A stretch of 52,273 nt of DNA from Chiloscyllium plagiosum (lineage: Eukaryota): positions 102,570,231 to 102,622,503 of the forward strand of contig NC_057718.1 in NCBI RefSeq assembly GCF_004010195.1, given 5' to 3'. A program made the position numbers and the translations under genes. This document shows positions 11,686 through 51,182 of this stretch, piece after piece. Under the pieces are notes generated by a model. That model saw only the letters and a list, made by a program, of their open reading frames with translations, did no database searches and was not told where the DNA came from. Every line of letters begins with the position of its first letter. The first letter of the stretch is position 1.

Positions 11686-11889
11686 GTGGAGGTGCCGGTA
11701 TTGGACCGGGTTTGGACAAAATTTAAAAATCACACGACACCAGGTTGTAGTCCAACAAGCTTATTTGGAAGTACAAGCTTTCGGATTGCTGCTCCTTCGT
11801 CGGGTAGCTAGTGGAGTAGGATCATACGACGTAGATTCTGCACTTCCAAATAAACCTGTTGGACCATAAACTAGTGTCCTGTGATTTCA
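11686..11889. mobile_element. Short Penelope-like fold-back element
   Basis: Inverted arms 'ccaggttgtagtccaacaagcttatttggaagt' and 'acttccaaataaacctgttggaccataaactag'; 12-bp direct repeat ATCTAATTTGAT at 11674-11685 and 11890-11901; degenerate hammerhead on the - strand (CCGACGA-A-GGA..TCC-GAAAGCTT). Confidence 0.75.
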
Positions 11890-11927
11890 ATCTAATTTGA
11901 TAGCCTGTTCCTGATTTTCCCCCATAT

Positions 11928-12294
11928 TTGGATGTAGGTTAGGTCGCTGAGCTAGAAGGTTTGTTTTCAGACATTTTGTCACCTTACTAGATGACATCTT
12001 CAGTGAGCCTCCGAATGAAGCACTGGTGGTGTAGCCTGCTTTCTGTTTTTGTTTCCTAGGGTTGATGTCATTTCCTGTGGTGACATTTCCTATGGTGATC
12101 TCATTTCCAGTTCTTAGGGGGTGGTAAATGGGATCCAAGTCACTGTGTTTGTTGATAAAGTTCTGGTTGGATCATGTCACCTGAAGATGTCACCCAGTAT
12201 GGTGAGAAAATAATCTGAAAACGAACCTTCCAGCTCAGTGACCAAACCTACATCCAGAACCTCAACCTGAGTTACATATCTTCTCAAAACTCGC
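11928..12294. mobile_element. Penelope-like element: truncated, with inverted pseudo-LTR
   Basis: Inverted arms at about 11930-12005 and 12180-12255; - strand ORF tail ..DLDPIYHPLR; 12-bp TSD TTTCCCCCATAT at 11916-11927 and 12295-12306. Confidence 0.85.
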
Positions 12295-12712
12295 TTTCCC
12301 CCATATCCTTTGATTCCTTTAGGCCCAAGTGCTATATCTAACTCTTTCCTGAAATTATACAATGTTTTGGCCTCAACTGTTTGCTGTGGTAGTGGATTCC
12401 TCAGCAGTCTGACTGAAGAATTTTTCTCCATCTCTGTCTAAATGGAAAACCATTTTAGAACTATGACCCTGGTTCTGGATTCCCCCACCATTTGATAAAC
12501 CTTCGCTGTTGTCTTTCTTTTATAAAAAGAATATCCTTCCTCAGATAAGGAGACCAAAATGACATGCAATTCCAGGTGTGTAAGGTGTATACTAAGGCCC
12601 TGTATAATTGCAGCAAGACATCCCTACTCCATACTCAAATCCACTTGACTGTCAATCTGGCTCAGACTTTGGTTTGTCTGTCTGAGTGTTTCCTTTAGTA
12701 GAAAGGCAAGAG

Positions 12713-12860
12713 GCAGGAAAAACACAATAAGCTAGGCAACATCAGGTCGACATTTCAGATGTAACCCTGCACCTCCTGATAATGTCTGGCTCGCTGTGTT
12801 CTTCCAGCCTCCTGCCTGTCCACTTTGGATTCCAGCATCTGCAGTTTTTTTTCATCTCTA
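12713..12860. mobile_element. Decayed Penelope-derived fold-back remnant
   Basis: 'gcaggaaaaacacaataagctaggcaacatcagg ... cctgataatgtctggctcgctgtgttcttccagc...ggattccagcatctgcagttttt'. Confidence 0.55.
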
Positions 12861-13784
12861 ACCATGAGTGTTTAGTTTGACAGTTGGTTTTGTAATCTCA
12901 GTGGGACTTGATTTGAATTAATTGCTTGTTATCTTGATTGGTAACTGACCCATTGTGAAGTGTTGTTTAGAATTGGTATTGTCACTCAGTGAAGTTATCA
13001 AAGCTGATGGGTACTTTTGGTCACCAAGAAACCTGCTTTAGTATCAGAAAATTGAGCACTTGCTAAGGTTTCCCTCTAGTTTTCCAATTGTGCAATTTCT
13101 CTGAAAATTCTCTATGAACAATTGTCACATTAATTTTTTTTGAAAAGTTCAATAGGTTTCCCTGAAGTGAGTCCTTGAGTGTGTCACTGTTAATTTGTTG
13201 CAGGTTGTTCCAATCCATAATTGTTCTTGATAAAAGAATTCTAAGAGTCTTATGTTTTTCTCTCTTTGTGCATAAGCCACTGGCAACTCCAGGAGTAGTC
13301 CAAAGAACTTAAATTTGAAGCTGTAACAGTTATGGGTGAGTTAAGACAACCAGTCCAGTAAATTCCAAGTATTTCTCCATCATTTTTGTTTTATCTGAAT
13401 AAATAAATAAATCTGTACAAATATTTTAATGCATGCTCAGCTTCAAGTATATTTTAGAGCAAATGTTAGACCTAACTGGAGGTTAACCCAAATACAGCAG
13501 AAATTAAGGTCACCACTGTGTTCACTGGTGCTCTTATGGAAACTAATATTGAGCTCTGATTTATGAGAAACTGTTGGGAATAATCCTAATGGTAATTACT
13601 CTGTTTGCCTATTTGATTGCAGGTGTGTGTTTTTGTGACAAAAGAGGGAAAGGAAATCTTCGAGCCTATATTCTACCTTCAAATAATATCCCCAGTAACA
13701 GTTTGACTAATTGCTTATTGGCTACAGTCTGTAGGAATTTTGTTAAAAATTATCGCCATGCTTGTCTGACCAAGTAATTATGTA

Positions 13785-14152
13785 CTGAAAATGTGTTGCT
13801 GGAAAAGCGCAGCAGGTCAGGCAGCATCCAGGGAACAGGAGAATCGACGTTTCAGGCATAAGCCCTTCTTCAGGAATCAAGCTTATTGTGTTTTTCCTGC
13901 CTCTTGCCTTTCTACTAAAGGAAACACTCAGACAGACAAACCAAAGTCTGAGCCAGATTGACAGTCAAGTGGATTTGAGTATGGAGTAGGGATGTCTTGC
14001 TGCAGTTATACATGGCCTTAGTAAGGCCACACCTGGAATTATGCCCAAAACGTCGATACTCCTGTTCCCTGGATGCTGCCTGACCTGCTGCGCTTTTCCA
14101 GCAACACATTTTCAGCTCTGATCTCCAGCATCTGCAGACCTCACTTTCTCCT
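13785..14152. mobile_element. Penelope-derived fold-back element with captured local DNA in its centre
   Basis: 76-bp inverted arms at 13785-13860 and 14040-14115 (3 mismatches); 14-bp TSD CAAGTAATTATGTA at 13771-13784 and 14153-14166; the centre, 13880-14040, is the reverse complement of 12568-12733. Confidence 0.9.
13841..13878 (-). ncRNA. Minimal type I hammerhead ribozyme motif (Penelope type)
   Basis: - strand GAUUC-CUGAAGA-A-GGGC-UUAU-GCCU-GAAAC-GUC-GAUUC: intact CUGANGA and GAAA core, stem II, palindromic ACGU stem III and a GUC cleavage triplet. Confidence 0.7.
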
Positions 14153-14434
14153 CAAGTAATTATGTATAAAAGCTTAGTACATGGTAATACAGTACTTTGT
14201 GACATGCTAAGCCATACCAAAGCTTGGCATAGTAGATGCCTGTGGAATTATTATTCTAAATTAGTAACATTGTAAAGTTCTAGTTCGTGCCTTTCAGCAA
14301 AAATTAATGCAGTGTTGAGTCATGTATGATTGGTATGACAAATTGGTGAAAGTAAGCATCAGCTAATGTGAAAAAGTTTTTTTTGCAAATAGCTTCATTG
14401 GTGTCATTGAGATGTTAAACTTGATTATTAATCG

Positions 14435-15089
14435 TGTGACGATGCTGTCACTTTAACAAGGTCATTTTGTCCTTGGGTCTTGTTTTATAGAGAGATGGTG
14501 GAGGCATAGGTGCCAAAACATCTGGAACAAACCTAGTTTAACAAAAGACAAAGGAGTGGCCAGTTCTCCCATTTCTAGTTTGGTTTACTTATAACCGTTT
14601 CTCTGCTACATGCTTCAGATGATTCTTGACTGGCTTCTCTCTCTCTGAAATCTCCTGCCTGTAAGAACTGTTAAGAATTTACCGTTTGTCAAAGAATATG
14701 TTTATGTAGTGTTATGGGAATTGGAACAGCCCCTTAGTAAGTTGCTGTATCAAGCCAGTTGTTTTCCAATAATTAAAGTTATTCTAAATTCTGGGAGTTT
14801 TTATTTGTTTTCAATTTTTTTAGATTAGATTAGATTCCTTAGTGTGGAAACAGGCCCTTTGGCCCAACAAGTCCACGCCGACCTTCTGAACAGCAACGCA
14901 CCCAGACCCATTCCCCTACATTTCACCACTGCACCTAACACTACAGGCGTTTTGCTTAAAGCAGGGTGGTCTGACCAGCTCTACAACACCTCTAATATCG
15001 ACTCCATATCTGCCTTTAAAATAAAAAAAAGTTGGGATTTATGCTTCCTTTTTAAAATATTTTGAGGGGGTCTGACCTGGTCCACAACA
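14435..15089 (-). mobile_element. Solo LTR (Gypsy-like) with an internal SINE fragment
   Basis: TG...CA termini (tgtgacg...ccacaaca); imperfect 4-bp TSD ATCG/ATGG; one end is related to the end of the 17430-18066 element. Confidence 0.6.
14822..14945 (-). mobile_element. HE1-like SINE 3' fragment
   Basis: 'agattagattagattcc..gtgtggaaacaggccctttggcccaac...gcacctaacacta' matches the other HE1 copies in the window. Confidence 0.75.
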
Positions 15090-16780: not shown

Positions 16781-17041
16781 CAGATTTTCTTTGAGATTAA
16801 GATTCTGAGGAATTCCTTTCTCCCAAAAAAATCTGAATATTCTGATGACACCAGTGGACAGAACTGCCTCCTTTTGTTAGGGATATGTCAGGGGTAGGTG
16901 GACTTATGGATTTGAGACCACAATCAGTACAGACATGATCTTATTGAACACTGTCAAGATCAGGTGCTGAACAGCCACATTTTACTCCTAATTAATTCAT
17001 ATATTTGCATGCTGTTGACTAAGAATTGATCGATTTTCCTT

Positions 17042-17394
17042 TGAAGATCTAAAACTTGAATACATGCTGACGTAACTAGTTGTTGTCAGGAACAACCACT
17101 TAATACCCATTCTTACAAACTTAGGTGAAATTTCTATGCTGTAGAGGAAGCATTGTCTGCTAATCTTTGTGGACACAGACTATGGTTAGTCAGTTATGCT
17201 ACTTTAACAGGTTTAAAAGCTATTTTATGCAGTTTTAAGCGGAATTGCCAATTTGAAGTCTAGAAGCTATTTTGATATCTTATTTGCAGTAAGAAGTCAT
17301 TTTATTTCCACCTAAATTAGGAAGAATATGTATTAAGTGGTTGTTCCTGACAACAACTAGTTACCTCAGCCTGTATTCAGGTTTCAGATCCTCA
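17042..17394. repeat. 65-bp inverted repeat pair around a 223-bp spacer (MITE/Crypton-like)
   Basis: 17042-17106 versus the reverse complement of 17330-17394: 5 mismatches, all in the outer half; the inner 35 bp are identical. Confidence 0.85.
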
Positions 17395-17429
17395 TCTTAA
17401 TATCAATTTCAAAGTTGATAGTTTTGTAT

Positions 17430-25530: not shown

Positions 25531-25834
25531 TTGTGCACACTGCTACTATGAACAATCTTATTGGAATGCTTGAATGTTTTTGAAAGGACTTTGAGTATGG
25601 CTGTAATATTATTTGTTCAAAAGGATTTTGAGATTCTAATATTCATCCTCCCTAGTAGGATCTGGATTGTCGACTATTTCTGACAGGACTGGTAACTAGT
25701 CAAATTTGCTAATGTCAACTGCTTGTTTTAATTTGCTTGAATGATATTAGCCATTTGTAACAATGGTGTGAGTAAGAATCATTTAGTGTCCTGCATTCCT
25801 TATGATTTTGTAGTTGTTACTCCAGTCAAAGTAA

Positions 25835-26700
25835 ATGTTACAGTACAGGAACAGGCTCTTTGGCCATCTAAGCCTGCGCCAATCCAGATTTCTCTAAACC
25901 TGTCACCTGTTTTCTAAAGGTCTGTATCCCCCTGCTCCCTGTCCATTCGTGTATCTGTCTAGATACATCTTAAATGATGCTATCATTTCTGTCTCTGCCA
26001 CTTCAGCTGGTAATGTGTTCCAAGTACCCACCACTGTGTAAAAAACGTTCCACGCATATTTCCCCTAAACTTTTCCCCTTGCTTCGAGCTTAGACCCCTA
26101 GTAATTGAGTCCCCCACGCTGGGAAGAAGTTTCCTGCTATCCACCCTGTCTATACCCCTTATGATTTTGTAGACCTCAATCAGTTCCCCCCTCAACCTCT
26201 TTCTACTCATCCTCTCTTCATAGCTAGCATCCTCCGTACCAAGCAATATCCTAATGAATCTCCTGTGCACTCTCCCCAAAGTATCCACATCCTTTTGGTA
26301 ATGTGGCAACCAGAGCTGTACTCAGTATTCCAAATGTGGCTGAACCAAAGTCCTATGGAACTGTAACATGATCTGCTAACTCTTGTACTCGGTACCCCAG
26401 CCAATGAAGGAAAGCATGCTGTATGCCTCCTCGACCAATTTATTGACCTGCATTGCCGCCTTCAGGGAACAATGGACCTGAACACCCAGATCTTTCTACA
26501 TAGTTTCCTCAGGACTTTTTCGTTTACTGTATAGTTCGCTCTTGAATTGAGTCTTGCAAAATGCATCACCTCACATTTGCCCAGATTGAACTGCATTTGC
26601 CATTTCTCTACCCAATTCTTTAATCTATCTATATTCTTCTGTATTCTCTGAACGTCCTCTTCACTATCTGCTACTCCATCCATCTTAGTGTCATCTGCCA
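25835..26700 (-). mobile_element. CR1 LINE, RT C-terminus to 3' end
   Basis: ORF track ADDTKMDGVADSEEDVQRIQ..WQMQFN..KCEVMHF and RLRGELIEVYKIIRGIDRVD. Confidence 0.9.
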
Positions 26701-28254: not shown

Positions 28255-28431
28255 TTGATGCTGATGAGATTAAACGGCTAGGAAAGCGGTTTAAGAAACT
28301 GGATTTGGACAATTCTGGCTCATTGAGTGTAGAAGAATTTATGTCCCTACCCGAGTTGCAACAGAACCCTCTAGTGCAACGGGTTATAGATATATTTGAC
28401 ACCGATGGAAATGGTGAAGTTGACTTTAAAG
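28255..28431 (+). CDS. PPP3R1: Calcineurin subunit B type 1, coding exon (exon 3 by human numbering; EF1-EF2)
   Basis: ttttcAG|TTGATGCT...TTTAAAG|GTaagg; 177 nt; (F)[58 protein letters not shown]. Confidence 0.98.
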
Positions 28432-29869
28432 GTAAGGTCCTTTTCAGCAATTAAGTTTGAAAACGTTTTTGAGCAAAATGTTTAATTTTCAAAAAGTTTT
28501 AGTTTCGTGTCTGCATTTCTGCTTGCTCTTTAAAAGGAAACCTATGAATATAAAGTGTTCATGTAAAAATTATATTATTGCATTGCTTAATAAATAAATT
28601 CAAGTTGTTTGTTAACATTACTCAAGAAAGGTTTATTATGTTTAGAATTTTCTGCATAGGAAAATGTGCTTACTGAAATTAAGAAGATAAAACATATTAT
28701 TCATCTAATTTTGAAAATCTGGTTTGGAGAATTTGTACTGCAGACCTTAAACTAGAAATTCCAAATTTAAATTATTCAACTGTTGAAGCAAGGTGTTTAA
28801 TGTTAGGGAAATGGTGATAATTCATCAATGATTCATCTTCACTTTTATTTACCCTTTAATGTGAGCTGTGTATTGAATCTTAATATACTAATAAGGATTC
28901 AAGCTTAATTTATCGTTTGTCAAAATTGTATTGTAAGGCACATTTTTCAGTACTAAAATAGATGAGTATGTATTAACAGAGCTCCATAGAATTAATACGT
29001 TCTCAAGCACATAATTCAATGTGCCACAAAATCAAAAGCATCTTTTTAGTACGAGTGCAATTGTTTAGTTACCAAGTATATTGTTCTATGTTCTATATAT
29101 GTTAAGTACATTAGTGTATCTGAATTTTTAAACATAGCCGTTGGGAAAGTCATGGATTTGGGACAGTATTTAATATTTTATCACCTATTCCAAGAATATT
29201 TGATGGGCTTTCTGGATATCCTTTAAAATTATATTAAATTTGTATGATTTGAGTAAATTGAATTTGTAATATTTAATATGTTGGTAATTTCAGCATTGCA
29301 CCTTCGATTTCAAAAGGTTCCAATCTGTGTATCAATTTTATACAGTTGAGCTGCTAAATTTCAAGTGAAGTATACCAATTTTTAACCATGCCTATTTTAT
29401 CAACATCCCTATTTCATTTCCCTATATTTTGCAATGTAGCAATCGAGTTATAATTTGATGTACAAAACAAATCAGATTTTGTTTGATAAAAGCTAATTAA
29501 AAAATAGAAAAATGAACAAACTGCTTCAACACTGATTGTAGATGTATTAGGTTTTATCATTGGAAACTTTAAAATCTTTAACAATCAAGTTAAAACTCTG
29601 AAGATTAAACTTTTTTTTTAAAACTCAAAATAGATTAAAAATTGTTTGGGAGATGGGGCTCTTCAGGATCAAAAAATAGTTGTATTCCATAGGGGAAACT
29701 TTCTTGCTTCAACTTGGCTCCTCTGTTCAAATGATTGAAACATAAACGTTGTGATTACTTCAAATACAGTTTAATAGAAACAATTTTTTTAAAACCATGC
29801 CTGAAATTGTGCAAATGCCAAGAGATATGTCACTGATTCGGTAAACCATATTTGCCTGTGCTTTAATTA

Positions 29870-30088
29870 TTTCGGGTTGGTTAGCTTTGTTAGCTGCACG
29901 CTGGTTTGTAAGGCAGAATAATGCCAAGAGTGTAGATTCAATTCCTACTCTGAGGTTACCATGAAGGGCTCTCTTTCTCAAACACTCCCCTTGCCTGACG
30001 TATGGTGATCCTTGGGTTAAACAATCACCAGTTATCTCTGTGTAATAAGAGGGAAGCCCTATGATCCAGAAAGAACTATGGGACCTTT
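29870..30088 (+). mobile_element. Decayed tRNA-derived SINE
   Basis: 'ttagctttgttagctg..gctggtttgt...gattcaattcc..ctgaggttaccatgaagg...gggttaaacaatcaccag'; a recognisable shark-type SINE layout. Confidence 0.55.
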
Positions 30089-32063
30089 TATCTTTTATTT
30101 ATGTCTAGAGATCAATTCAGCTAATTTAAGAATTGTTTATCAGACATTGATGCAAGTTTATATTTGATGCAACTAATGGAATATTTCTTCAGTTGTTTTG
30201 TCTCAACTTGTTAAGTTCATTTCACAAATGTTCCTTTACCTATAATTTCCTAGATTTAAAGGAATGAATAGTGTCTTTTGTTTTTCTAAGAATAAATCTA
30301 TCTTCAGGACAGGTATTAGAAGTACAGTTTTAGTTCAGAAGTCCTTAATACAAATTGACTTAAATTACTCAAGTAGTTTACGATTGTAAAAGGAGCCAGT
30401 TTCTCCCAAAAAATTATGTTCTGAGTGTTAGATTTCTACCCAGATTGAGATGTGACTGACAAGTATAGTCAGTTTGCATCAGCCTTAAGCTGGTTTCATC
30501 TCCCATCTGGTCATGTGAAGTCTTTTGATGTAATTCCCTGAGACCTTGAATAGGATTTAGTTGAAGGTAATGTAAAGCTCCACTTCCATGGTTATAAAAA
30601 TAACACTCAATAATCTGAGCTTGACGCACAGCAAGGGATAGCCTGCCTTTGTTTGACATTTTCTAAACCGTAAATAGTTTAGAATGATTTGCTACATCAT
30701 CTGGCAGAATGTTTGTTAATTTTGGAATGTTAGGTGCAATAGATATTACATTGGGAGTCCTGACGTTTGCTGAATGAAATGCTTAGGTGATTCCATAGGA
30801 ATAAATGGTGAGGGTTTGCATTTCACCATCTCCATAAGGATGTTGAATATAGTCTTAAACTTATCAACTTATTCTATCCTACTATATGAATGCAGCAAAG
30901 TACCATTATTATAACATAGAGGAGAAATTAATTTGCTTCAAGCAACTTTCACTCAAAGGTGCAGGCTCAGGTCTTCCTTTTGGTTGAGGCGTGGGTGAAA
31001 ATATGGTTGCGATTGGCAGAATTTATTTGAGGTCCTTTTTTAAAAATGGATGTTTGAGGAAATTGCTGCAGTTAGTGCTTCTAAGTGTTACTTTTACATT
31101 TAGGGTAAACTCTTTTAGGATGGACTTGTTTAAAGAAAAAATAAACCTACCACATTAACAATTCCACTAAATGTGGTGAAAACATTTTAAACCTCTTAAG
31201 GTAATACTGCTAACAATTTTATGCAAGTCAATGTTTAAATATTTCAGGTGTACTCGTCCTGTTCTCCTTTTTTCTCTGTGAATGTTTCCAAAACATTCAA
31301 GATGGTGACCTCGAGCCAGTTCTGTAACGCTGTGCTGAATTTTCTACTGAAGGATACTAACATTGTAGTATCTATTTTGGTATAAATTGTCTTAACTGAG
31401 GAGGTAGGAATGTCTCCAGGAGAGTAACACCATACTAGTGAAGCAGATTGCAATGACAATGTCAAACCAAGGACAAGCAGCATCAGATTTTTTTTTTTAA
31501 CTTCTCAGGCTTGTCGTGGTATTTGTATAATGGACCCATTGATGTGTGATAATCCTAAATGAGCTAGTGTAATTTGTAAGGCAACAATTATCTAAGATGT
31601 ACTGCAGTGCATTGTGCTACTTACAAGGTGCTGCTTGATCTGTAAATGACACACCTGTATTTCTTTTAGTCCCTCTTTTTTTTTCCTGCACCTGCACAGT
31701 AGTTCAGGATAGATATTGTGATTTAGTGCGTGCATGCATGCATGACGCTCAACCTAGTGGTGGTGTTGCCACATGTGCAGTCTTTCTCTATTTGTATTTT
31801 TTAAACTTGAAATTCTGTACTTTCTATTCCAGTACTAAAATCGTAGAGGTATACAGCATGGAACAAACCCTTCAGCCAACTCATCCATGCCAACCTGATT
31901 TTCAAAACTGCACAAGTCCCATTTGCCTGCATTTGGCCCATATCCCTCTAAATCTTTCATTTTATATTTTACTATCTGCTTCCCTGTTGACTTTCAGATG
32001 ACTGGCCTCTGCAGACTGACAGTCCTGGATGATTGAGCTTTTGAGATGTGAAATTGCTAATAT

Positions 32064-33281
32064 GGGATGTAAATTTGCTCGCTGAGCTGTAGGTTTGATA
32101 TCCAGATGTTTCATTACCTGGCTAGGTAACATCATCAGTGGCGACCTCCAAGTGAAGCGAAGCTGTTGTCTCCTTTCTATTTATGTGTTTGTCCTGGATG
32201 GAGTTCCTGGGGTTTGTGGTGATGTCATTTCCTGGTTTTTCACCCCCCCCCCCCCCACCATCAATCACATTGCTAATGAAAACATCATGAAGCTAGTGGA
32301 CCTGTGCCTCACCACCCACTTTCACCTTCAACAACATAATCTACAAACAAACCAACGGCACACCCATGGGATCTCCGCTATCAGTATTTATAGCAGAAGC
32401 GGTAATGCAGAGACTAGAACAAACAGCCCTACCAACCATCAAACCAAAAATCTGGGTCCACTATGTAGATGACACCTTTGTCATCACAAAATGAAACAAG
32501 ATAGAAGAGACATTTAACATCATCAACAACACATTCACAGGCATAAAGTTCACCAAGGAGGAAGAAACCGACAACAAACTCTCATTCCTGGACGTCACAG
32601 TCAAAAGAGAGGACAACGGAGGACTACAAACCTGCGTATACAGAAAACCGACAAACACTGACCAAATACTTAACTACACCAGCAACCATCCCACCCCTCG
32701 GAATCCTAGTAGCACACAAACCCACCAACATACTCAAACAAAAACTAACAAACTTAAAAGACCCAGTACATCCCATGGACAAAACCAACGTTATCTACAA
32801 AATTCCATGCAAGCACTGCCACAAACACTACGTAGGACAAACAGGAAGAAAGTTAGCCAGGATATACGAACACAAGCTATCCACAAAAAGACACGACCCT
32901 CTCTCCCTCGTAGCCCTACACACGGATGAAAAAAAAACACCATTTTGACTGGGATAACACCTCTATCCTGGGACAGGCTAAGCAAAGAGATGCCAGAGAA
33001 TTCCTAGAGCACTCCAACCACAACGCCATAAACACACACACAGATCTAGACACCATCTATCAACCCCTCAGAAAATGAACAGGAAATGACATCACCACAA
33101 ACCCTAGGAACCCCATCCAGGAGAAAGATATAAATAGAAAGTAGGAGACAACCGCTTCGCTTCATTTGGAGGTTGCCACTGATGTTACCTAGCCAGGTAA
33201 TGAAACGTCTGGATATCAAACCTACAGCTCAGCGAGCAAACCTACACCCTAAACCTCAACCTGAGCTACAAACCTTGCAAC
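32064..33281 (+). mobile_element. 5'-truncated Penelope/Poseidon-like retroelement (RT plus GIY-YIG remnants) with inverted 5' pseudo-LTR
   Basis: RT: YKQTNGTPMGSPLS..IWVHYVDDTFVI. GIY-YIG: KTNVIYKIPCKHCHKHYVGQTGRKL. Frameshifts and stops present. Inverted arms at about 32064-32240 and 33080-33250; TSD TGCTAATAT at 32055-32063 and 33282-33290. Confidence 0.93.
32102..32141 (-). ncRNA. Minimal hammerhead ribozyme motif in the inverted pseudo-LTR
   Basis: - strand CCA-CUGAUGA-U-GUUACC-UAGCCA-GGUAAU-GAAAC-AUC-UGG: stems I and II pair; the triplet is AUC, versus GUC in the + strand copy at 33176-33212. Confidence 0.6.
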
Positions 33282-34399
33282 TGCTAATATATTGTCCTGT
33301 TTCAGTTCCATAATGGGGAATGGTGTTGCTCCTTTTCAATGAATATCTGGTATAAGTACTTGAAAAAAGTGGTTTTCTTTAAAGTATTTAACATTGTTAC
33401 AGGCATGCTCAAAGCAAGAAACACTTTGGCTTAAATTTGAAAAACATGGCCCCAAAGGGCTTGTACAGGTTTTGTCCGTGATGAGCTCATCAGTTGCTGT
33501 AATTAGTCATATGCTGAATTTGGTTCACTTGGGCTCTGAGGGATCTGTCTTATTCTTTGACATTCCCTTTGTTTGAGACAGTTACTTACACTGTATACAT
33601 TTCTTTCCCTTATCCACAGGCGAGGCTACAGTTTGCGTTGTTATGGATTATTTGGAATCTTTCATCTTAGGTAGAATTTTGCATATAGTTGACATGGTAT
33701 TTTGAGCATTGGAATTATGTAAATGTTGAGCTAGCTGATATTTAATTGTTTAGAAGTACGGAAGCTTAGTTTTGGTCAAAGAGACATGCTATTGAAGTTT
33801 TTCATCTTGCCCTCATTAGGACAGAATCTCAAGAGTATCAAATCTCGGGGCAACATCTCACCTTGTATGAGAAGATTGTTTGGTTGGCACATGGAATTTG
33901 ATTCTTAGAGGTGTTACCATAGAGAATATGCCAAGGAATAGTTAACTACCAACCTTTCATTTAAACTTAAACCAGGCAGCTCTGCTTTGGTCAAGGTATT
34001 GCCATGGTAAATACACAAGGGAATATTTGGCCCATAAGCTTTTGTTTATCTGCAAAGGTGCAAGTGGACTTGTTAATTCTGTTTGCAAAGATTAGAGCCC
34101 CGCATGTGAATATGTGGCTACTAATATTTATACCAATTTAAGTATTCAAGTTCCAACAAGTGCAACTTGTATGTACTTGAAAAATTTGGATAACTACCAC
34201 ATAAATGCCGGTTATAACATTTTGGTTTTACAGGCACCAAGATACTGCAACTTACATTTGAGTTCATGTTTTCAGAAATTGGTAACTGATGTAGTGTTAT
34301 ATTATCTTTAATCTTGGATTATTGCATCACAGAATTGGTATGATGCAATAAGAACCTGTTAGCTCCTTGTCTGTGCCAGCTCTCCAACATAATGTTTAG

Positions 34400-35070
34400 A
34401 ATATAAAGAGTGTCAGGGCATTCCTAAGAGGCAGATCAGGAAGGCAAAGAGAGTATATGCAATAGTTTTGAAAATAGGGTTAACGATAATCATTGCTCAC
34501 TCCTTTTGAGAGTAGCAGTTTGGGATATTATGTGGAGGTTCTACAGGATGTTATTGAGGCCTATTCTGGAGTTGTGTGCACAGTTTTAGCCTCCCTGTTA
34601 TAGGAGGATTTTATTAAGCTGGAGGGGGTTCACAAGATTTTTGAGGATGTTGCCAGGAATGAAGGGTTTAAGATATGAGAGACCCTGCATAGGCTGGGAC
34701 TTTTTTTCACTAGAATGTAGGAAATTGAGAGGTGACTTTATAGTGGCTTATAAAATAATGAAGAATATAGGTAAGGTGAATGGCAGGTGTCTTTTCCTGA
34801 AGGTGGAGGATTTCCAGACTAGGGGGTATATTTTTCAAGGTGAGAGAAAAGAAATTTTAAAGACATAGGCAATTTTTTTGTTTAAACACAATGGTTCATG
34901 TGTGGAATGAACTTCCAGAGGAAGTGGTGGATACAGGTATCATTGCAATGTTTAAAAGACACGTGGATAAATACATGAGCATCAAGTGTTTAGAGGGATA
35001 TGGCCCAGGCAAAGGCAGGTGGGACTAGATTGTTTCTGATAGAGTCAGCAGGGATTGGTTGGAGTGGAGG
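34400..35070 (+). mobile_element. CR1 LINE 3' region
   Basis: ORF track RMLPGMKGLRYER..FFSLECRKLRGDFIVAYKIMKNI. Confidence 0.85.
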
Positions 35071-35606
35071 ATACTCAGTGACTCGTTTTTATATTTTGAC
35101 TGAATATTGAACAAAACCAGTGCCTGAACTCCTCCTCAAAAAGATGTCAGCATTTTTAACTGGGAGAAATGTTGAGTAGCTAGTGTATTTATTAGGTCTG
35201 GAAATTAATTGATGGACTAAAAAAGCAAGGGTGATGTGAGAAAAAGCATTTTCACTCGAGGTAGCAGTTAGATTGCACTGCCTGGAAGTGCGGTAGAGGA
35301 AGGCTCAATTTGGGGCATTCAGGGGGGCATTGGATGGTTAATTGGAGAAAAAATAGTAAGCGAGGGCATAGTGAGAAAGCAGGTGGTTGGCACTAGATGA
35401 TTTGAATGCAGGCATGATGGACTGAGTGGGCTTTGCATCATAAGACTTCTGCAATTCTTTGAAAAGTTTGAAATGTTGAATTGGGTGAGTGAAATTGAAA
35501 TGAGTTGTTGAATTTGTCTGAACTTTAGGGTACTTTCTGCCTCTAATTTTGTTTGTTGGTTCTGTGTGGCGTGTTTAAAGTGGTCTCTCCACATCCAATA
35601 CAATGG

Positions 35607-35898
35607 ACTCCCTACAGTGTGGAAACAGGCCCTTCAGCCCATCAAGTCCACACAGACCCATTCCCCTACCCTATATCTACCCCTGACTAATGCACCTAAC
35701 ACTATGGGCAATTTAGCATGGCCAATCCACCTGACCTGCACATCTTTGGACTGTGGGAGGAAACCGGAGCACCCAGAGGAAACCCACCCAGACACGGAGA
35801 ATGTGCAAACTCCACACGGGCAGTCACCAAAGGCTGGCATCGAGCCTGGGACCCTGGTGCTGAGGCAGCAGTGCTAACCACTCAGCCACCGTGCCGCC
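35607..35898 (-). mobile_element. HE1-like V-SINE
   Basis: 'gggaggaaaccggagcacccagaggaaaccc...tgcaaactccacac...gtgctaaccactcagccaccgtgccgcc'. Confidence 0.9.
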
Positions 35899-37142
35899 TT
35901 ATGTGTAGATTAAATGTTGCACTTCAGTCATAAGCAGCATCAAAATGTGCAGGTGCTATAATTATAATTCTAAAAGTTTCAAATCCTAACGTACCATCCT
36001 GCAGAAGGTTTGACAAAATGAGTCAAATAGTTTGAGAGTTAATTTGGATGCTATCAGTCACTGTTTCACTTTTGTAATTTAAGTGTAAAAGACAGGACAG
36101 CAGGAATAAATGGTTTTTTTTTCCACCTCCTTGGGTTGAAGGCAGTAGTTCTTTGCCAAAGCTTGCTTTGTCAGTAACAATTAACTGTTTTACAAACTAT
36201 CAGACCCTCTAGTTGGAGAATCAAGTCACTGCTGTGTGGTTCTGCTAATATGATTTAGTGAAAAGGTTGTGTATGGAGGAGCAGCTTGTAAACAGCAGGG
36301 TGTGTGCATTCAAATTTGCCCAATGACTGCAGAACTGCTTGACCATTGGAATCAGGAGGGCCTGAGTGTACATTCCCCAGCCTATAGTTTGTGACTGGTG
36401 GCTCTGGACTCTGGAGTGGCATAGGACCCAACTGAAGCCCCTGTTAAGAATGAGCTTCCTTGAATCAATTTGCATCCAACCAATTTTTAAAATATTTTCT
36501 GTTCAAAAAGTTGTGAAATGCATAATTGTTCTATTTTAATTTCACAAAGGCAGGCTTTAAATTTAATATCTTGTTGTGTTTGTGCAGTGCTGAAGACAAT
36601 TAGACTTCGAGTAACCAGACAGTATTGTTATAAGTAGGGAATAGGACATCACTCCCTGTTGTTAATGTGCAATACAGAAAACTCTCCTCGTATTGGGCAA
36701 AGGGACTTCAGATATGTTTGGCAACAGTTTTTTTTCATAAAAGGCCATTCTTCAGAAGGTGTGATGTATTTTATTGTCATTGCTACAACTTACTGAGATT
36801 CAGCAAGAGAGTGCACTCTATACCCTCCAATGAAAAATAACCATCCATCTGCATAATTGATAGTTAAGGTAAGATAAAACACATGAAACAGTCAAAATGA
36901 GTGAAGCAGTCAAGATGAGAAACTGGTTGCTCATTTGTTTGCATAAATTTATGCATGCTCAGTTTGGACTCAATGCAGTATTTGTTCTTCATGGAATAGT
37001 TTTCCAAGATGTTTCTCCACCCATATGTGAATGTGTGATGAACGCTATCAGTTCACCAAGGAGGAAGCTTTCCTTAAAATAAGGGTTAAACTTAGATTCA
37101 GTTTAACCCTTTTAAGTAAAAGCTGGTCTCTTAGTGAGCAAA

Positions 37143-37262
37143 AGGGAACCTCTTGTAATGCACTGGTAGTGTCCTGAACCATGGACTGGAAGGCCCGTGT
37201 TCAAGTCTCACCTGTTCCTGAGGTGTGAAAATATCATCGCTGAACAGGTGAATGAGAAAAAT
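37143..37262 (+). mobile_element. Short tRNA-derived SINE
   Basis: 'gcactggtagtgtcc...ggcccgtgttcaagtctcacctg...ctgaacagg'; related to 10478-10580. Confidence 0.5.
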
Positions 37263-37460
37263 GGGTTAAAGTTAGCTAGAATACGATGCTAGTTTGAAGA
37301 CTCCCTGAATTTGGATGTTGAGTATAATAACCATGTATTTACAAAGCATTTTGAAACAATTGGAATGCAATGTTTGATTATTGTTTAAAAATGATTAGTT
37401 TCTTTTGTGATTGGTTGTTTCAAAGTATCAACCAACTCTGTTATGGAATTGTTCTTGTAG

Positions 37461-37520
37461 AGTTTATTGAAGGCGTCTCCCAATTTAGTGTCAAAGGTGA
37501 TAAAGAACAGAAATTGCGAT
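37461..37520 (+). CDS. PPP3R1: Calcineurin B coding exon (exon 4)
   Basis: ttgtAG|AGTTTATT...TTGCGAT|GTaagt; 60 nt; (E)FIEGVSQFSVKGDKEQKLR; phases match the neighbouring exons. Confidence 0.98.
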
Positions 37521-38052
37521 GTAAGTATGATTTTAGTGTACTTGAATTTTGAGTGATTAATGCATATTTCCTTTGACTGCATTGCTTATTGTTTGGTACT
37601 GAAGGTAATTGAAATATTTGTGGACTTAACCATTTAAAGTTCGAAAGAGGATAAAGCCACTCCATTTTAATTTTAATTTTGAACCTTCTGGGTATTGATT
37701 GACCTAAGCTGAGTGAGAAGTACTCTTTTCCCCTGATCCAGGAAGCCAGTGAGCTCAAGCCCAACTCTAGGGATGTGAACACATAATTTTGACTGCCACT
37801 TGTGTAATAATATTCAGGAAGTGCAGCATTATTAAAGTTATAGCCAAGTTTACTTTCAGTTGCCAGGAAACTCAACTCTGGAATTCCCTCCGTGTCTTCC
37901 TTAACCCTTTACTTTTCTCCTTGAAGATATTTTTTGTTTGAAACACAACCTCTCTGCCCAAGCTTTAGTTAATCTGACTATTTTATAATGCTATTGCAAA
38001 ACACCTTTGAGCACACTATTATGTTAAAGGTGCTATATAAGTTGTCAGTTAA

Positions 38053-38254
38053 GTCATAGAATCCCTACAGTGCAGATTAGAGGTCATTTGACTGATCGAG
38101 TTTCCCAACAGCATTTCGCTCAGACCAGAGCACCTGGCAGAAACCAGGCAGACTCTGGGAGAACATACAAACTCCATAGTCACCCAAGGCCAGAATTGAA
38201 CCCGGGTCCGTGGTGCTGAGGCAGCAGTGTTAACCTTTGTGCCACTGTGTTGCC
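38053..38254 (-). mobile_element. Decayed HE1-like SINE
   Basis: 'gaattgaacccgggtccgtggtgctgaggcagcagtgttaacc..tgtgccactgtgttgcc'. Confidence 0.75.
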
Positions 38255-38516
38255 GTAGAAACTATTTTAAAATGAATATTAGCTGAATACTTCAAAAATG
38301 TTCAGACACATCTTGAAATTTATATTGTTACTCTTCATGTGGTAGAAAATGCATTTTCCCCCATTATGAATTAATGATCATCTGCTCAAATGTATTTTCA
38401 ACCCAAAGGTGAAAGTAACTCAAAATTGTCTAGAAGATTCCTAAAGTAAAACCTTTAAAATTGAGTTTTACAGTGTCATGACTGCAACAGCAATTCAAAC
38501 TATTTTTCTTTTTCAG

Positions 38517-38701
38517 TTGCTTTCCGCATCTATGACATGGATAAGGATGGGTACATCTCTAATGGAGAGCTTTTCCAGGTGTTGAAGATGATGGTGGGGA
38601 ACAATCTAAAAGACACTCAGCTACAGCAAATTGTAGACAAAACCATAATTAATGCAGATAAAGATGGAGATGGGAGAATATCTTTTGAAGAGTTTTGTGC
38701 A
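38517..38701 (+). CDS. PPP3R1: Calcineurin B coding exon (exon 5; EF3-EF4)
   Basis: ttttcAG|TTGCTTTC...TGTGCA|GTaagt; 185 nt; (F)[61 protein letters not shown]. Confidence 0.98.
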
Positions 38702-41019
38702 GTAAGTAAATCTGCTTTCTGGATAACAACATGCTGCAGCATTTGCGTACCTCCTTGTCTGAACAATTTGCCAGAACAGAGCATTGCTAAGTTATTAGAT
38801 TTGTTCTGTTAATAAAAGATAAAATGAGAAGTTTTTAAATATTGACCATTAAATTAGACATGCTTTTATTGATATATGAGACACCTTATCAGGGAAATGT
38901 TTTATTAATGTCAAATTTTAATGCTGTTGGGAGTATTGAAATATTTGACTAACTGGATTTAATTTTTTAAAATTCATTTTCCTGCTTGGTCAAGTCATAG
39001 CCAAAGCAACCTTGATAAGTATTTGAAGGGGAGCTTACTCCTGGCAGTTTAATTTACAATAGACTTCATTCTCCAGCACCAGTGCTGCTGAAAAATGAAA
39101 TTATTTATCACTGGGAAAATTTGTGATTGTCTGCGAGGCTTTCCCTTCAATCATGAGATGCATGTAGAGTTAAATCATGATCCAGCCATGTGGAATGATG
39201 TTTGAGTACATTCTTTGTGTCTAGGCTTCCTCTCCTTCAAATTCACCATTGCTCCTTGACTGAAATAGTCTTCAGCAATGGCATGTACTCACCTGCTAAC
39301 ATGGTTCCAGGAGTGACTGCCACTGAGAAACAGTCCACAGTTCAATGCTCAGTTAATTGACACAGACTATGCCAGTTCCAGTTTATCATATACTTCATTG
39401 CCAGACGATGTAAATACAAATGAGGACAGTAGCTTGGAACAATCCATATACTGAGCATTACTATCCAAATATAGCTGAAAAAGGCCTATACGTTTAGCAC
39501 ATCAGACCTCACAGATGGTGCTTTGGATGCTAAATGGTAGCTTTCCTTAGCAAAAATGGATTCTCCTTCATATGCATTTGTTGATGTTTTTGAACTGAAA
39601 ATGGATGAGTTAATAGGTCAGTCAGCCATCCTGAACACAAGATGATATCAGCTGTTCAGGGCTAAGCAGGTTAGTTTGAATTTGGTAGCCTTTGAATTCT
39701 GGATTGGGTCATTAAGGTGGAGTGGAAAAGGTTGTGGTGTTTGTGACAGAACAAGTAGATTGTGTGGTATTACTGCAACATTCTGATGCAGTTTTCATAT
39801 GTTGAGCCTAGGTTCCTCAGAACACAGGTTATACTCCAACGGTGGATGCATAGTCAAAATGTGAACGGATGCCATAATGGTTTGCTTTATTAGTTTGATT
39901 TTTTTTTTGTATCAGCTGTTTCAAGAGCTGCAACTGAGCCTAGTGCTGCTCTTCCCCTATCCAAATGTGTACACTTGACAGCTGAGGTGTCACTGCACCT
40001 AAGTGTATTTATGTTCTCAATCCAGCAGTGCAAACTGTTGCCTTGGCTACTCTTGGCCAGCTCAGCACAGGTGGACTGAGCATTTGCACTAGCCATCGAG
40101 AAGCTCAAGTTGTTTTTCAGTCACTATGTTCTGACAGCTGTGCCCACCTGACCTGTTGTAATACATAAATTGCAGATATTCATGACTTTGTACAAAATGT
40201 AAGAAATGTTTGTCTTGCAGTATGTTGAAGGTTAGTGCTAAGATGAGGCTCATCTTGCTTGAAACGCAAAAGCAGTGGGATTGAAGAAAATAAAATGGAG
40301 GGATATACCTTTTGTTGGTTATATAACTACAGAGTAAGAACCTATAATTCCCAAAATGGGAATTGAACTTTACTCCAGTTATGTGAAACACAATCTTGGC
40401 ATATTAGAATCTATTTAGTTTGGTGTAGACACATCTATGGCTAATCTGGAATGAGACTTCCTTATTCATATTGTAATATTTTCTGAATTTTGATTTTCTT
40501 ATTGAAATGATTACAGTGGCAATCCATTATAAAATGGTTCAATATACTGCAATTTTCTTAATGCAGAGGTCTTGCTAAAACAGAAATCTTTTATTCAAAT
40601 CTTGCTAGTTAAGAATAGGAGTTTTCATATTAACATGCTCTGGTGATATAGCAATTTTAATTTTGGACTCCAATATCTGTTGTTATATGTTTCTGGCTTG
40701 TACTATTGATTCTGCTATAATGCATGTTTCTTCAAAGCGAATTGGCTACAACACAATCAAAGAATTTGTAGAATGTGAACTTACCTGTATTGGCTATAAT
40801 GTGATTATAGTCCCATCGGTTTAAATGGTGCTGGTATTATGTGATTTTCTTAACACAGAATCGCACAGGAATGGAACTATTGTTTTCTATCAGAACAGAC
40901 TGTATGTATTGATGATTTAAAGAGCCTGTCTCCTAATTATCCAAGATGTTGCATGTTTTGCTGCTCTGTATCGTCCAATGACTGAGGCAAATACTTACCA
41001 TTTGTACTTTCCCATCCAG

Positions 41020-41067
41020 GTTGTAGGAGGCCTAGACATCCACAAAAAGATGGTTGTTGATGTGTGA
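41020..41067 (+). CDS. PPP3R1: Calcineurin B last coding exon (exon 6)
   Basis: cccatccAG|GTTGTAGGAGGC...GATGTGTGA; VVGGLDIHKKMVVDV*. Confidence 0.98.
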   Translation, partial: VVGGLDIHKKMVVDV

Positions 41068-50670: not shown

Positions 50671-51182
50671 TTGAGTTGGATGGAGGCTTGCTCGCTGAAC
50701 TGGAAGGTTTGTTTTCTAACATTTTGTCACTATACTAGGTCACATCAGTGAGCCTCCAGTGAAGTGCTAGTGGATATCCCGCTTTCGATTTGTGTTTAGG
50801 TTTCTTTGGGTGGTTGATCTCATTTCTAGCCTTTTCCTCAGAGAAGGCAGATGGGGTCAAAAATTAATGTGCTTGTTGATAGAGTGCTGGCTGGATTGCC
50901 ATACTTCAAGGAATTCTTGTGTGTGTGTGTTTGGTTTATCCCAGGATGGATGTGTTGTCTCAAAGTATGGATTTGGACCCGAATTACCTTGCTCTGAGAA
51001 AAAAGGACCAGAAATGACATCACCCACCCAAAGAAAATCTAAACACAAATAGAAAGCAGGACATAGCACTGACGACGTTACCTTATATGATGACAAAACA
51101 TTGGAAAACAAACATTCCAGCTCAGCGAGCAAACTTACATCGAGAACCTCAACCTGAGCTACAAATCTTCCCAAAAATCACT
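50671..51182. mobile_element. Penelope-like element with inverted pseudo-LTR, inserted into a CR1 3' remnant
   Basis: Inverted arms; - strand ORF tail QEFLEVWQSSQHSINKHINFDPI; direct repeat AATCTAT at 50664-50670 and 51183-51189; same family as 11928-12294. Confidence 0.8.

Follow-up and report, generated by a model that had tools for sequence, protein, structure and literature searches.

Canonical insertions of the endonuclease-bearing (EN+) Penelope-like elements Penelope and Poseidon are described, in the accessible parts of PMC8557442, PMC3846280 and PMC11167929, as an inverted, 5'-truncated copy beside a direct copy, with a tail of 30-40 bp on one side only, a TSD at an A/T-rich target and a hammerhead motif. 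In vitro, the protein of a lizard Poseidon element cuts a nick in each target strand and extends both, starting at two RNA sites that delimit the tail, and the accessible part of the same source presents the joining of the inner ends of a Penelope-like insertion as a step still awaiting experimental demonstration (PMC11167929). For L1, 22 templated insertions at junctions have been reported, typically shorter than 250 bp and no farther than 15 bp from the site (as outlined in bioRxiv 2024.08.27.596794), colon clones have yielded fold-back duplications of 52-220 bp as well as a single co-insertion of a nearby pre-mRNA (as summarized in PMC10191854), and inversions and inverted duplications from resected L1 ends have been described (bioRxiv 2024.12.14.628481, accessible part). 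An inverted orientation from a donor on the same side is, according to the accessible sections of PMC11724301 and bioRxiv 2024.12.14.628481, the product of fold-back of a resected end. At the "snap-back" and "extra template" 5' junctions of R2, the 3' end of the cDNA primes further synthesis, with itself, nearby DNA or a different RNA as the template, before the junction is closed (PMC11371274, accessible part), and at double-strand breaks in yeast a resected end folds, undergoes short synthesis, is released and is end-joined to give an inverted product; in the cases outlined in PMC11724301, these insertions are primed by a 10-bp inverted microhomology within ~60 bp of the break and have a length of mostly 5-34 bp. 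Penelope elements of Adineta vaga have captured host sequence of 0.9 kb to gene size, framed by Penelope terminal repeats and a TSD and located between direct repeats or before the 3' repeat; mobilization in trans has been proposed for these captures, and no local donor is described in the accessible part of PMC3846280.

Here we describe a Penelope-like insertion in the window, i.e., the whole 52,273-nucleotide stretch of Chiloscyllium plagiosum DNA that was analyzed. The insertion has all of the EN+ features listed above (the inverted truncated copy, the 30-40-bp tail at one end, the TSD at an A/T-rich target and the hammerhead motif), but it differs from canonical insertions, in which just element ends are present, in having 161 bp of local host DNA at the junction of its two arms. 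As in the templated and fold-back insertions of L1, genomic DNA of <250 bp that is not part of the element has been duplicated into the insertion in inverted orientation, with 0-2 nt of homology, with the donor intact and with a perfect TSD retained. Unlike in L1, where templates typically lie within 15 bp or arise from fold-back at a small hairpin, the donor lies upstream and ends 1,037 bp from the TSD, the copy sits between two cDNAs and not against a flank, and a tether may have been provided by an older related element. The R2 junctions resemble this locus in their priming on nearby DNA or RNA, but they come from engineered insertions in the rDNA of human cells with one cDNA per insertion, whereas this is a germline Penelope-like fossil. 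The yeast fold-backs share the inverted product, but here there is no inverted microhomology at the priming point and the loop would be ~1.1 kb. Host sequence is framed by Penelope ends and a TSD here as in Adineta vaga, but the arms are inverted and the donor is 1 kb away, in contrast to a host sequence that lies between direct terminal repeats and moves as a unit.

The spacer works like an L1 or R2 templated insertion, but without the distance and priming-homology features of those classes. A first-pass annotation of this DNA had proposed a route for transposon-driven local templated inversions, the novelty of which was overstated, given that templated and fold-back insertions at L1 and R2 junctions have already been published; the kind of insertion scar is known, and the testable aspects here are the ~1-kb reach, the possible tether and the scar in the donor. 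No report of local capture at a Penelope arm-arm junction was found in a search of literature titles and abstract openings, a search that most subscription papers fell outside. Captures at arm-arm junctions matter because the free end, the exposed strand and the distance reached can all be read from them.

Structure of the Penelope-Like Insertion

The coordinates of the insertion, of the donor of its spacer and of the associated features are listed in Table 1.

Table 1. Features of the insertion locus and its surroundings (positions are those of the window).
Feature	Position	Strand	Remarks
Donor tract	12568..12733	+	CR1 remnant, unique middle, then the first 37 nt of the older Penelope remnant
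Donor scar, 4-for-9 replacement	12581..12589	+	8/9 nt match flanks within 12 bp; CR1 frame broken
Older Penelope-like fold-back remnant	12697..12864	.	Decayed possible TSD 12683-12696 / 12865-12878 (12/14)
Right arm of older remnant, proposed tether	12766..12808	+	Complementary to the new left arm at 13798-13839 (29/43 columns)
Left TSD, 14 bp	13771..13784	.	11/14 A/T; single copy at the empty site of organism C
Penelope-like insertion, 368 bp	13785-14152		TSD, inverted arms, one-sided tail, hammerhead core
Left arm	13785..13879	-	Inverted, 5'-truncated Penelope-like end without tail; hammerhead core
Captured inverted copy, 161 bp	13880..14040	-	Corresponds to 12568-12733; last 2 nt in common with the right arm
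Right arm	14039..14115	+	5'-truncated inside the hammerhead; no plus-strand catalytic core
Tail, one side only, 37 nt	14116..14152	+	Family 3' end at 14152
Right TSD	14153..14166	.	14/14 identical to the left TSD
Four coding exons, calcineurin B type 1 (PPP3R1)	28255..41067	+	Starts near 28255, 37462, 38517 and 41020

Both TSD copies abut the ends of the element exactly, in agreement with the perfect 14-bp TSD originally claimed. The inverted arms, given in that annotation as 76 bp, are present as well but are 77 nt long (13785-13861 and 14039-14115) and have three differences (96% complementary), two of them at one CpG. Family sequence in the left arm extends past the paired part to 13877-13879, that is, over 16-18 nt with no counterpart in the right arm, and the right arm has a 37-nt tail of its own; neither arm can therefore have been copied from the other as it stands, and formation of the left arm by snap-back on the right arm was rejected in that form. 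Since each arm has family sequence that is absent from the other, we infer that two first-strand cDNAs were made and that their 3' ends came together at the center of the element. The core of a hammerhead, found on the minus strand by a pattern scan, starts at 13873; an Rfam search with E values up to 1 gave no hammerhead match. The parents of EN+ insertions encode a telomerase-like RT and a GIY-YIG endonuclease; no ORF was found inside the insertion.

Contigs from four of 24 runs were compared with positions 12740-14900, two from organism A (X1 and X2, two samples from two studies), one from organism B (X10) and one from organism C (X12). Contigs of the element family have loose ends at 14152 in all four runs and also at 13877, and one joint among the family joints listed extends to 13879. 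That joint, together with the fact that both bases lengthen stem I of the hammerhead, led us to drop the idea that 13878-13879 are untemplated filler; the left junction of the copy has 0-2 extra nt. The base common to both arms at 13831 and 14069 makes up 31-37% of the family depth in organism A versus 2-4% in organisms B and C, where family depth is summed contig depth and not copy number, with some differences uncounted. Because both arms carry this base, they were assigned to one young subfamily, and the contrast between organism A and its relatives points to a young subfamily and one insertion event. The subfamily so marked amounts to about one third of the family depth in organism A, which has the look of a lineage-specific burst.

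A Local Inverted Copy Between the Arms

When the window was compared with itself, the spacer matched the reverse complement of the upstream donor tract with an E value of 3e-68, as the first-pass annotation had claimed. Counted from the left junction, copy and donor share 125 identical nt, the very figure that had been estimated, followed by two substitutions (12608/14005 and 12600/14013, donor/copy), a 4-for-9 replacement at donor 12581-12589 and a further 13 identical nt. The mosaic make-up proposed for the donor was also borne out, and its middle part, 12645-12697, has the copy as its sole match within the window. The copy fills the exact meeting point of the arms, with no trace of any other junction. 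At its right junction 2 nt are shared (14039-14040), so that this end was joined with little homology, and at the left junction (13879/13880), where priming would have occurred, there are 0 nt of microhomology, inverted or otherwise. Of the seven fold-back spacers in the window, each compared with the remaining sequence, this is the only one with a match to unique DNA nearby; the six others had none.

The spacer is a real, local and young copy that lies outside the family consensus. This upholds the earlier view that the tract was copied locally and is neither a dispersed repeat nor part of the family, in that the spacer is absent from family contigs and the middle of the donor is unmatched elsewhere in the window. 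The product is an inverted duplication and not an inversion, the term used in that annotation, as the donor remains in place. Metagenome contigs were also tried as a source of family copies, and a 31-nt pattern gave 0 loci in them; 48 metagenome loci found with a 19-nt pattern were taken as chance, none of them aligning over >26 nt.

Empty Site and Filled Allele in Independent Contigs

An orthologous empty site with one copy of the TSD, which was looked for in relatives, was found in the contig of organism C. This contig, ~4.4% diverged, runs from 12832-13770 straight into 14153-14470 and omits 382 nt, i.e., 368 plus 14. In both samples of organism A, flank contigs enter the element by 12-22 letters at each outer end, indicating the filled allele, although this reach is shorter than the 31-letter rule and one of the two samples may be the source of the assembly. 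Among the contig pieces listed from the four runs, no piece spans the inner junctions and none represents a spacer-free allele of this insertion.

The summed depth is in the millions on the arms versus 28-68 on 13908-13980, and the spacer is therefore not carried by the family contigs; the lower depth does not count copies of the spacer, as it is 44 in organism C, which is without the insertion. Pieces in X1 and X10 cover 13880-14011 without continuing into the left arm, and we read them as donor contigs, which would place the donor mosaic in organism B too. Family arms joined directly to each other, with the joint running from 13876 to 14039, were found in at least two contigs in X1, at least five in X2 and at least three in X10. 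In organism B the match of the flank contig ends at 13662 with 115 letters over, and 14273-14345 is uncovered; another rearrangement is possible there.

Differences Between Copy and Donor

All three differences between copy and donor fall in the CR1 part. To assign them, the copy and the donor were read in the CR1 sense and compared with other CR1 copies. The frame of the copy is unbroken through LVRPHLE, as it is in two other CR1 copies in the window, and the donor is frameshifted there; because the copy retains the CR1 frame, the replacement at 12581-12589 is derived in the donor. The scar destroys one arm of a 7-bp palindrome, which is intact in the copy. Short inserts that match nearby flanks are the pattern of polymerase-theta-type repair. 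At 12608/14005, three of four other aligned CR1 copies have the base of the copy, and the change is probably derived in the donor. At 14013 the copy is the deviant, since 83-94% of the family depth has the donor's base, and this change reads as derived in the copy. The statement in the earlier annotation that the copy is more CR1-like than its source is accordingly correct for the replacement and for 14005 and fails at 14013, where the copy departs from the family. The clustering of the differences at one end, also remarked upon there, is present but mildly unusual at most (P 0.03-0.08, by simulation).

The arms and the copy have similar divergence (one non-CpG difference in 77 nt for the arms versus two substitutions in 157 nt for the copy), and they look equally young. 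Because the ancestral CR1 frame survives in the copy, the donor would have been damaged either during the capture event or afterwards. We considered the C-to-T change at 12608 as a deaminase-type change, on the basis of its sequence context, and set this aside because one site proves nothing. The one private change of the copy lengthens the palindrome at 14013-14029 from 7 to 8 bp, which could be chance or a small template-switch correction.

Origin of the Spacer

The spacer is best explained by a template switch at the point where the two arms meet. The first-pass annotation had proposed that the RT or a repair polymerase switched to nearby DNA or nascent RNA during integration; the switch is supported, with DNA as its more probable template and integration as its more probable time. 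The reading that we favor, with a confidence that falls a little short of even, is that both target nicks primed cDNA and that the exposed top strand then served as the template for the end of the left cDNA, which had folded back onto it and was afterwards joined to the right cDNA via the two shared bases. The element endonuclease would have nicked the two strands 14 nt apart, and each 3' end would have primed first-strand cDNA, with the right arm and tail starting at the RNA end and the left arm at an inner start site. The two cDNA 3' ends would then have faced each other unjoined, with the bottom strand to the left of the break resected over at least 1.2 kb. The left cDNA would have folded onto its own top strand, where weak pairing to the older Penelope remnant (a proposal made post hoc) probably kept it in place, and been extended by 161 nt from 12733 to 12568; the product of this extension is seen in the sequence. 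Its new end would have been released and joined to the right cDNA through the two common bases, a microhomology that is present at the junction. The donor, single-stranded then or later, would have gained the one C-to-T change and the templated 4-for-9 replacement, the polarity of which is evident, as opposed to its timing. If the left cDNA primed, the donor lies on the side of the priming end, left of the site, and the copy is inverted, as this model predicts. We propose no function for the structure, which is a mutational scar.

Several points tell against fold-back of the left cDNA and keep it tentative: there is no homology at the priming point, the proposed tether is weak and separated from that point by unpaired nt, the inner junctions and any allele that would tie the capture to the insertion in time are absent from the listed contig pieces, the donor is farther away than typical L1 templates, and nascent RNA fits the orientation equally well. 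Resected DNA and pre-mRNA share top-strand polarity here, so the two templates are not told apart by it. With RNA as the template, the RT would have jumped, in the same event, from the left arm to a PPP3R1 pre-mRNA whose 3' end lay near 12733, and the resulting 161-nt copy would have been linked to the right cDNA. Relative to the exon-bearing plus strand the copy is antisense, as a cDNA of the pre-mRNA of this plus-strand gene would be, a start without microhomology and with 0-2 extra nt suits an end-to-end jump, and the same tether would serve on RNA; precedents, as far as the accessible parts of the sources go, are the single L1 case with a nearby pre-mRNA (PMC10191854) and the jumping of R2 proteins between templates (PMC11371274). 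Yet the tract bears no hallmark of RNA, having neither a splice junction nor poly(A) and just three differences, and transcription at this place is itself inferred, the upstream exons lying outside the window. A hammerhead-cut RNA end was rejected as the template because the plus strand is without a complete core that would make such an end. An RNA template also gives no cause for the damage to the donor DNA, and we regard it as unlikely; the DNA template is favored on two grounds, namely that resected ends are known to fold back, both at L1 breaks and in yeast, and that such fold-back would leave the donor open to the damage seen.

Slightly less probable again is a history in two steps, in which an ordinary fold-back inserted and its near-perfect palindrome later broke centrally and was patched by host repair with nearby DNA. 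Long palindromes are fragile, and family copies with directly joined arms do exist at nearly the same positions (13876 to 14039); moreover, fold-back templated insertions occur at any break, according to the accessible part of PMC11724301. Those directly joined contigs are short, however, and come from other loci (organism B has them too), the arms and the copy share a similar low divergence, and the junction of the cDNA ends is already an open break during integration, which makes a second lesion unneeded. Extension of the right-arm cDNA instead of the left, primed by two bases at 12568-12569 on the bottom strand and running to 12733, would make use of the sole microhomology, which is at this end, and would account for the copy and the right arm having the same sense; access would have been gained by duplex invasion or through antisense read-through RNA from the old remnant, and in one variant the last 35 nt came from another CR1 copy, which would explain the clustered differences, all three of which lie in the CR1 part. 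Two bases cannot pick out a site 1.2 kb away in duplex DNA, though, the register match of the remnant would have to be chance, copy and donor agree at 14014-14023 as far as the scar and again over the 13 nt past it, and an antisense transcript is not known here, which leaves this reading very improbable. An artefact of assembly, or a multicopy or family spacer, is the least credible of all: the absence of the inner junctions from the listed contig pieces and the outer contigs that enter by just 12-22 letters, under the 31-letter rule, would allow it, but the depth on the arms dwarfs that on 13908-13980, the site is empty in a relative (organism C), and an assembler would not invent the private base of the copy or its intact CR1 frame, which is missing from the donor.

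An Older Remnant as a Possible Tether

The older remnant next to the donor owes its family name to an earlier reading and to its likeness to the young element. L1 cDNA is said, in older L1 work, to pair with older L1 copies near the target; our literature search for such pairing returned nothing. At this locus the pairing register of the proposed tether (26605-26606) is 7-8 nt from that of the copy (26613). With this register required, in a banded score, the pairing is equaled at only two of the 988 candidate points tried over 10 kb of upstream sequence, and both coincide with the real point, in a test that was devised post hoc, after the data had been seen. Without the register condition the match is not significant, as 67 of 300 shuffles score as well, and by duplex energy it is equaled by 12 of the 988 tiles, which fall in three places, the remnant being the nearest one. 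An unpaired stretch of ~32-40 nt would separate the tether from the priming point, and the remnant's own hairpin (-26.0) would compete with the tether pairing. A stronger site on the bottom strand (-32.5 versus about -26 kcal/mol) was left unused, which suggests that the top strand alone was free, and this suits resected DNA and pre-mRNA equally. The end of the left cDNA may have been steered by pairing to the older Penelope remnant beside the donor. An Rfam match to mir-641 (E 0.023, far below its cut-off) merely reflects the hairpin of the old remnant and was discarded.

We speculate, and consider it rather doubtful as a general rule, that Penelope-like elements seal their head-to-head cDNA pair via a long-lived open break, in which a free end steered by weak pairing to the nearest older remnant within ~1 kb copies the adjoining DNA and scars the donor. 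If true, genomes crowded with remnants would acquire recurrent, predictable inverted duplications over kilobase range, and these would form a fossil record of the Penelope sealing step. A testable rule for how these elements make local inverted duplications and long duplexes in introns would follow if older remnants exert such a pull, over a range of ~1 kb, throughout the genome.

Host Gene and Predicted RNA Duplexes

The insertion probably lies in a long upstream intron of PPP3R1, based on the logic that no earlier exon of the gene and no CpG island were found in the window upstream of the four coding exons; the locus would then be transcribed as part of that intron. Five candidates for exon 2, chosen by the size and peptide of that exon, were rejected, as none was calcineurin-like. 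As a single locus, the structure is a harmless-looking scar in a probable intron.

The predicted RNA pairing is -298 kcal/mol for donor and copy and -146.5 for the arms, and when 12540-14180 is folded in silico, donor and copy form 158 pairs with each other, whereas the arms form none. The suggestion that the pre-mRNA gains two competing long duplexes is plausible to this extent, the two being mutually exclusive in the predicted fold, but its weight was overstated: an ordinary fold-back in the same gene, at 32065-33249, is about as stable (-292), and long duplexes are therefore ordinary in this gene.

Neighboring Repeats

Several other repeats were recorded in the window. Upstream of and around the donor, 11690-12864 holds three separate Penelope-like fold-back remnants and a CR1 remnant within 1.2 kb. 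A longer fold-back at 32065-33290, of another Penelope-like family, has an 845-nt spacer with broken ORF fragments, two of which (32495-32945) had no match in Pfam, and remnants related to it are found at 11929-12290 and 50679-51180. At 17029-17407 there is a 102-nt inverted repeat (83%) with a 175-nt spacer, for which no Penelope-like motif and no local spacer donor were noticed; it is possibly an old miniature DNA element or a fold-back duplication. Finally, an exact 16-bp direct repeat at 25798-26172, with its copies 359 bp apart, overlaps a region of minus-strand CR1 remnant and is a possible TSD of a further insertion.
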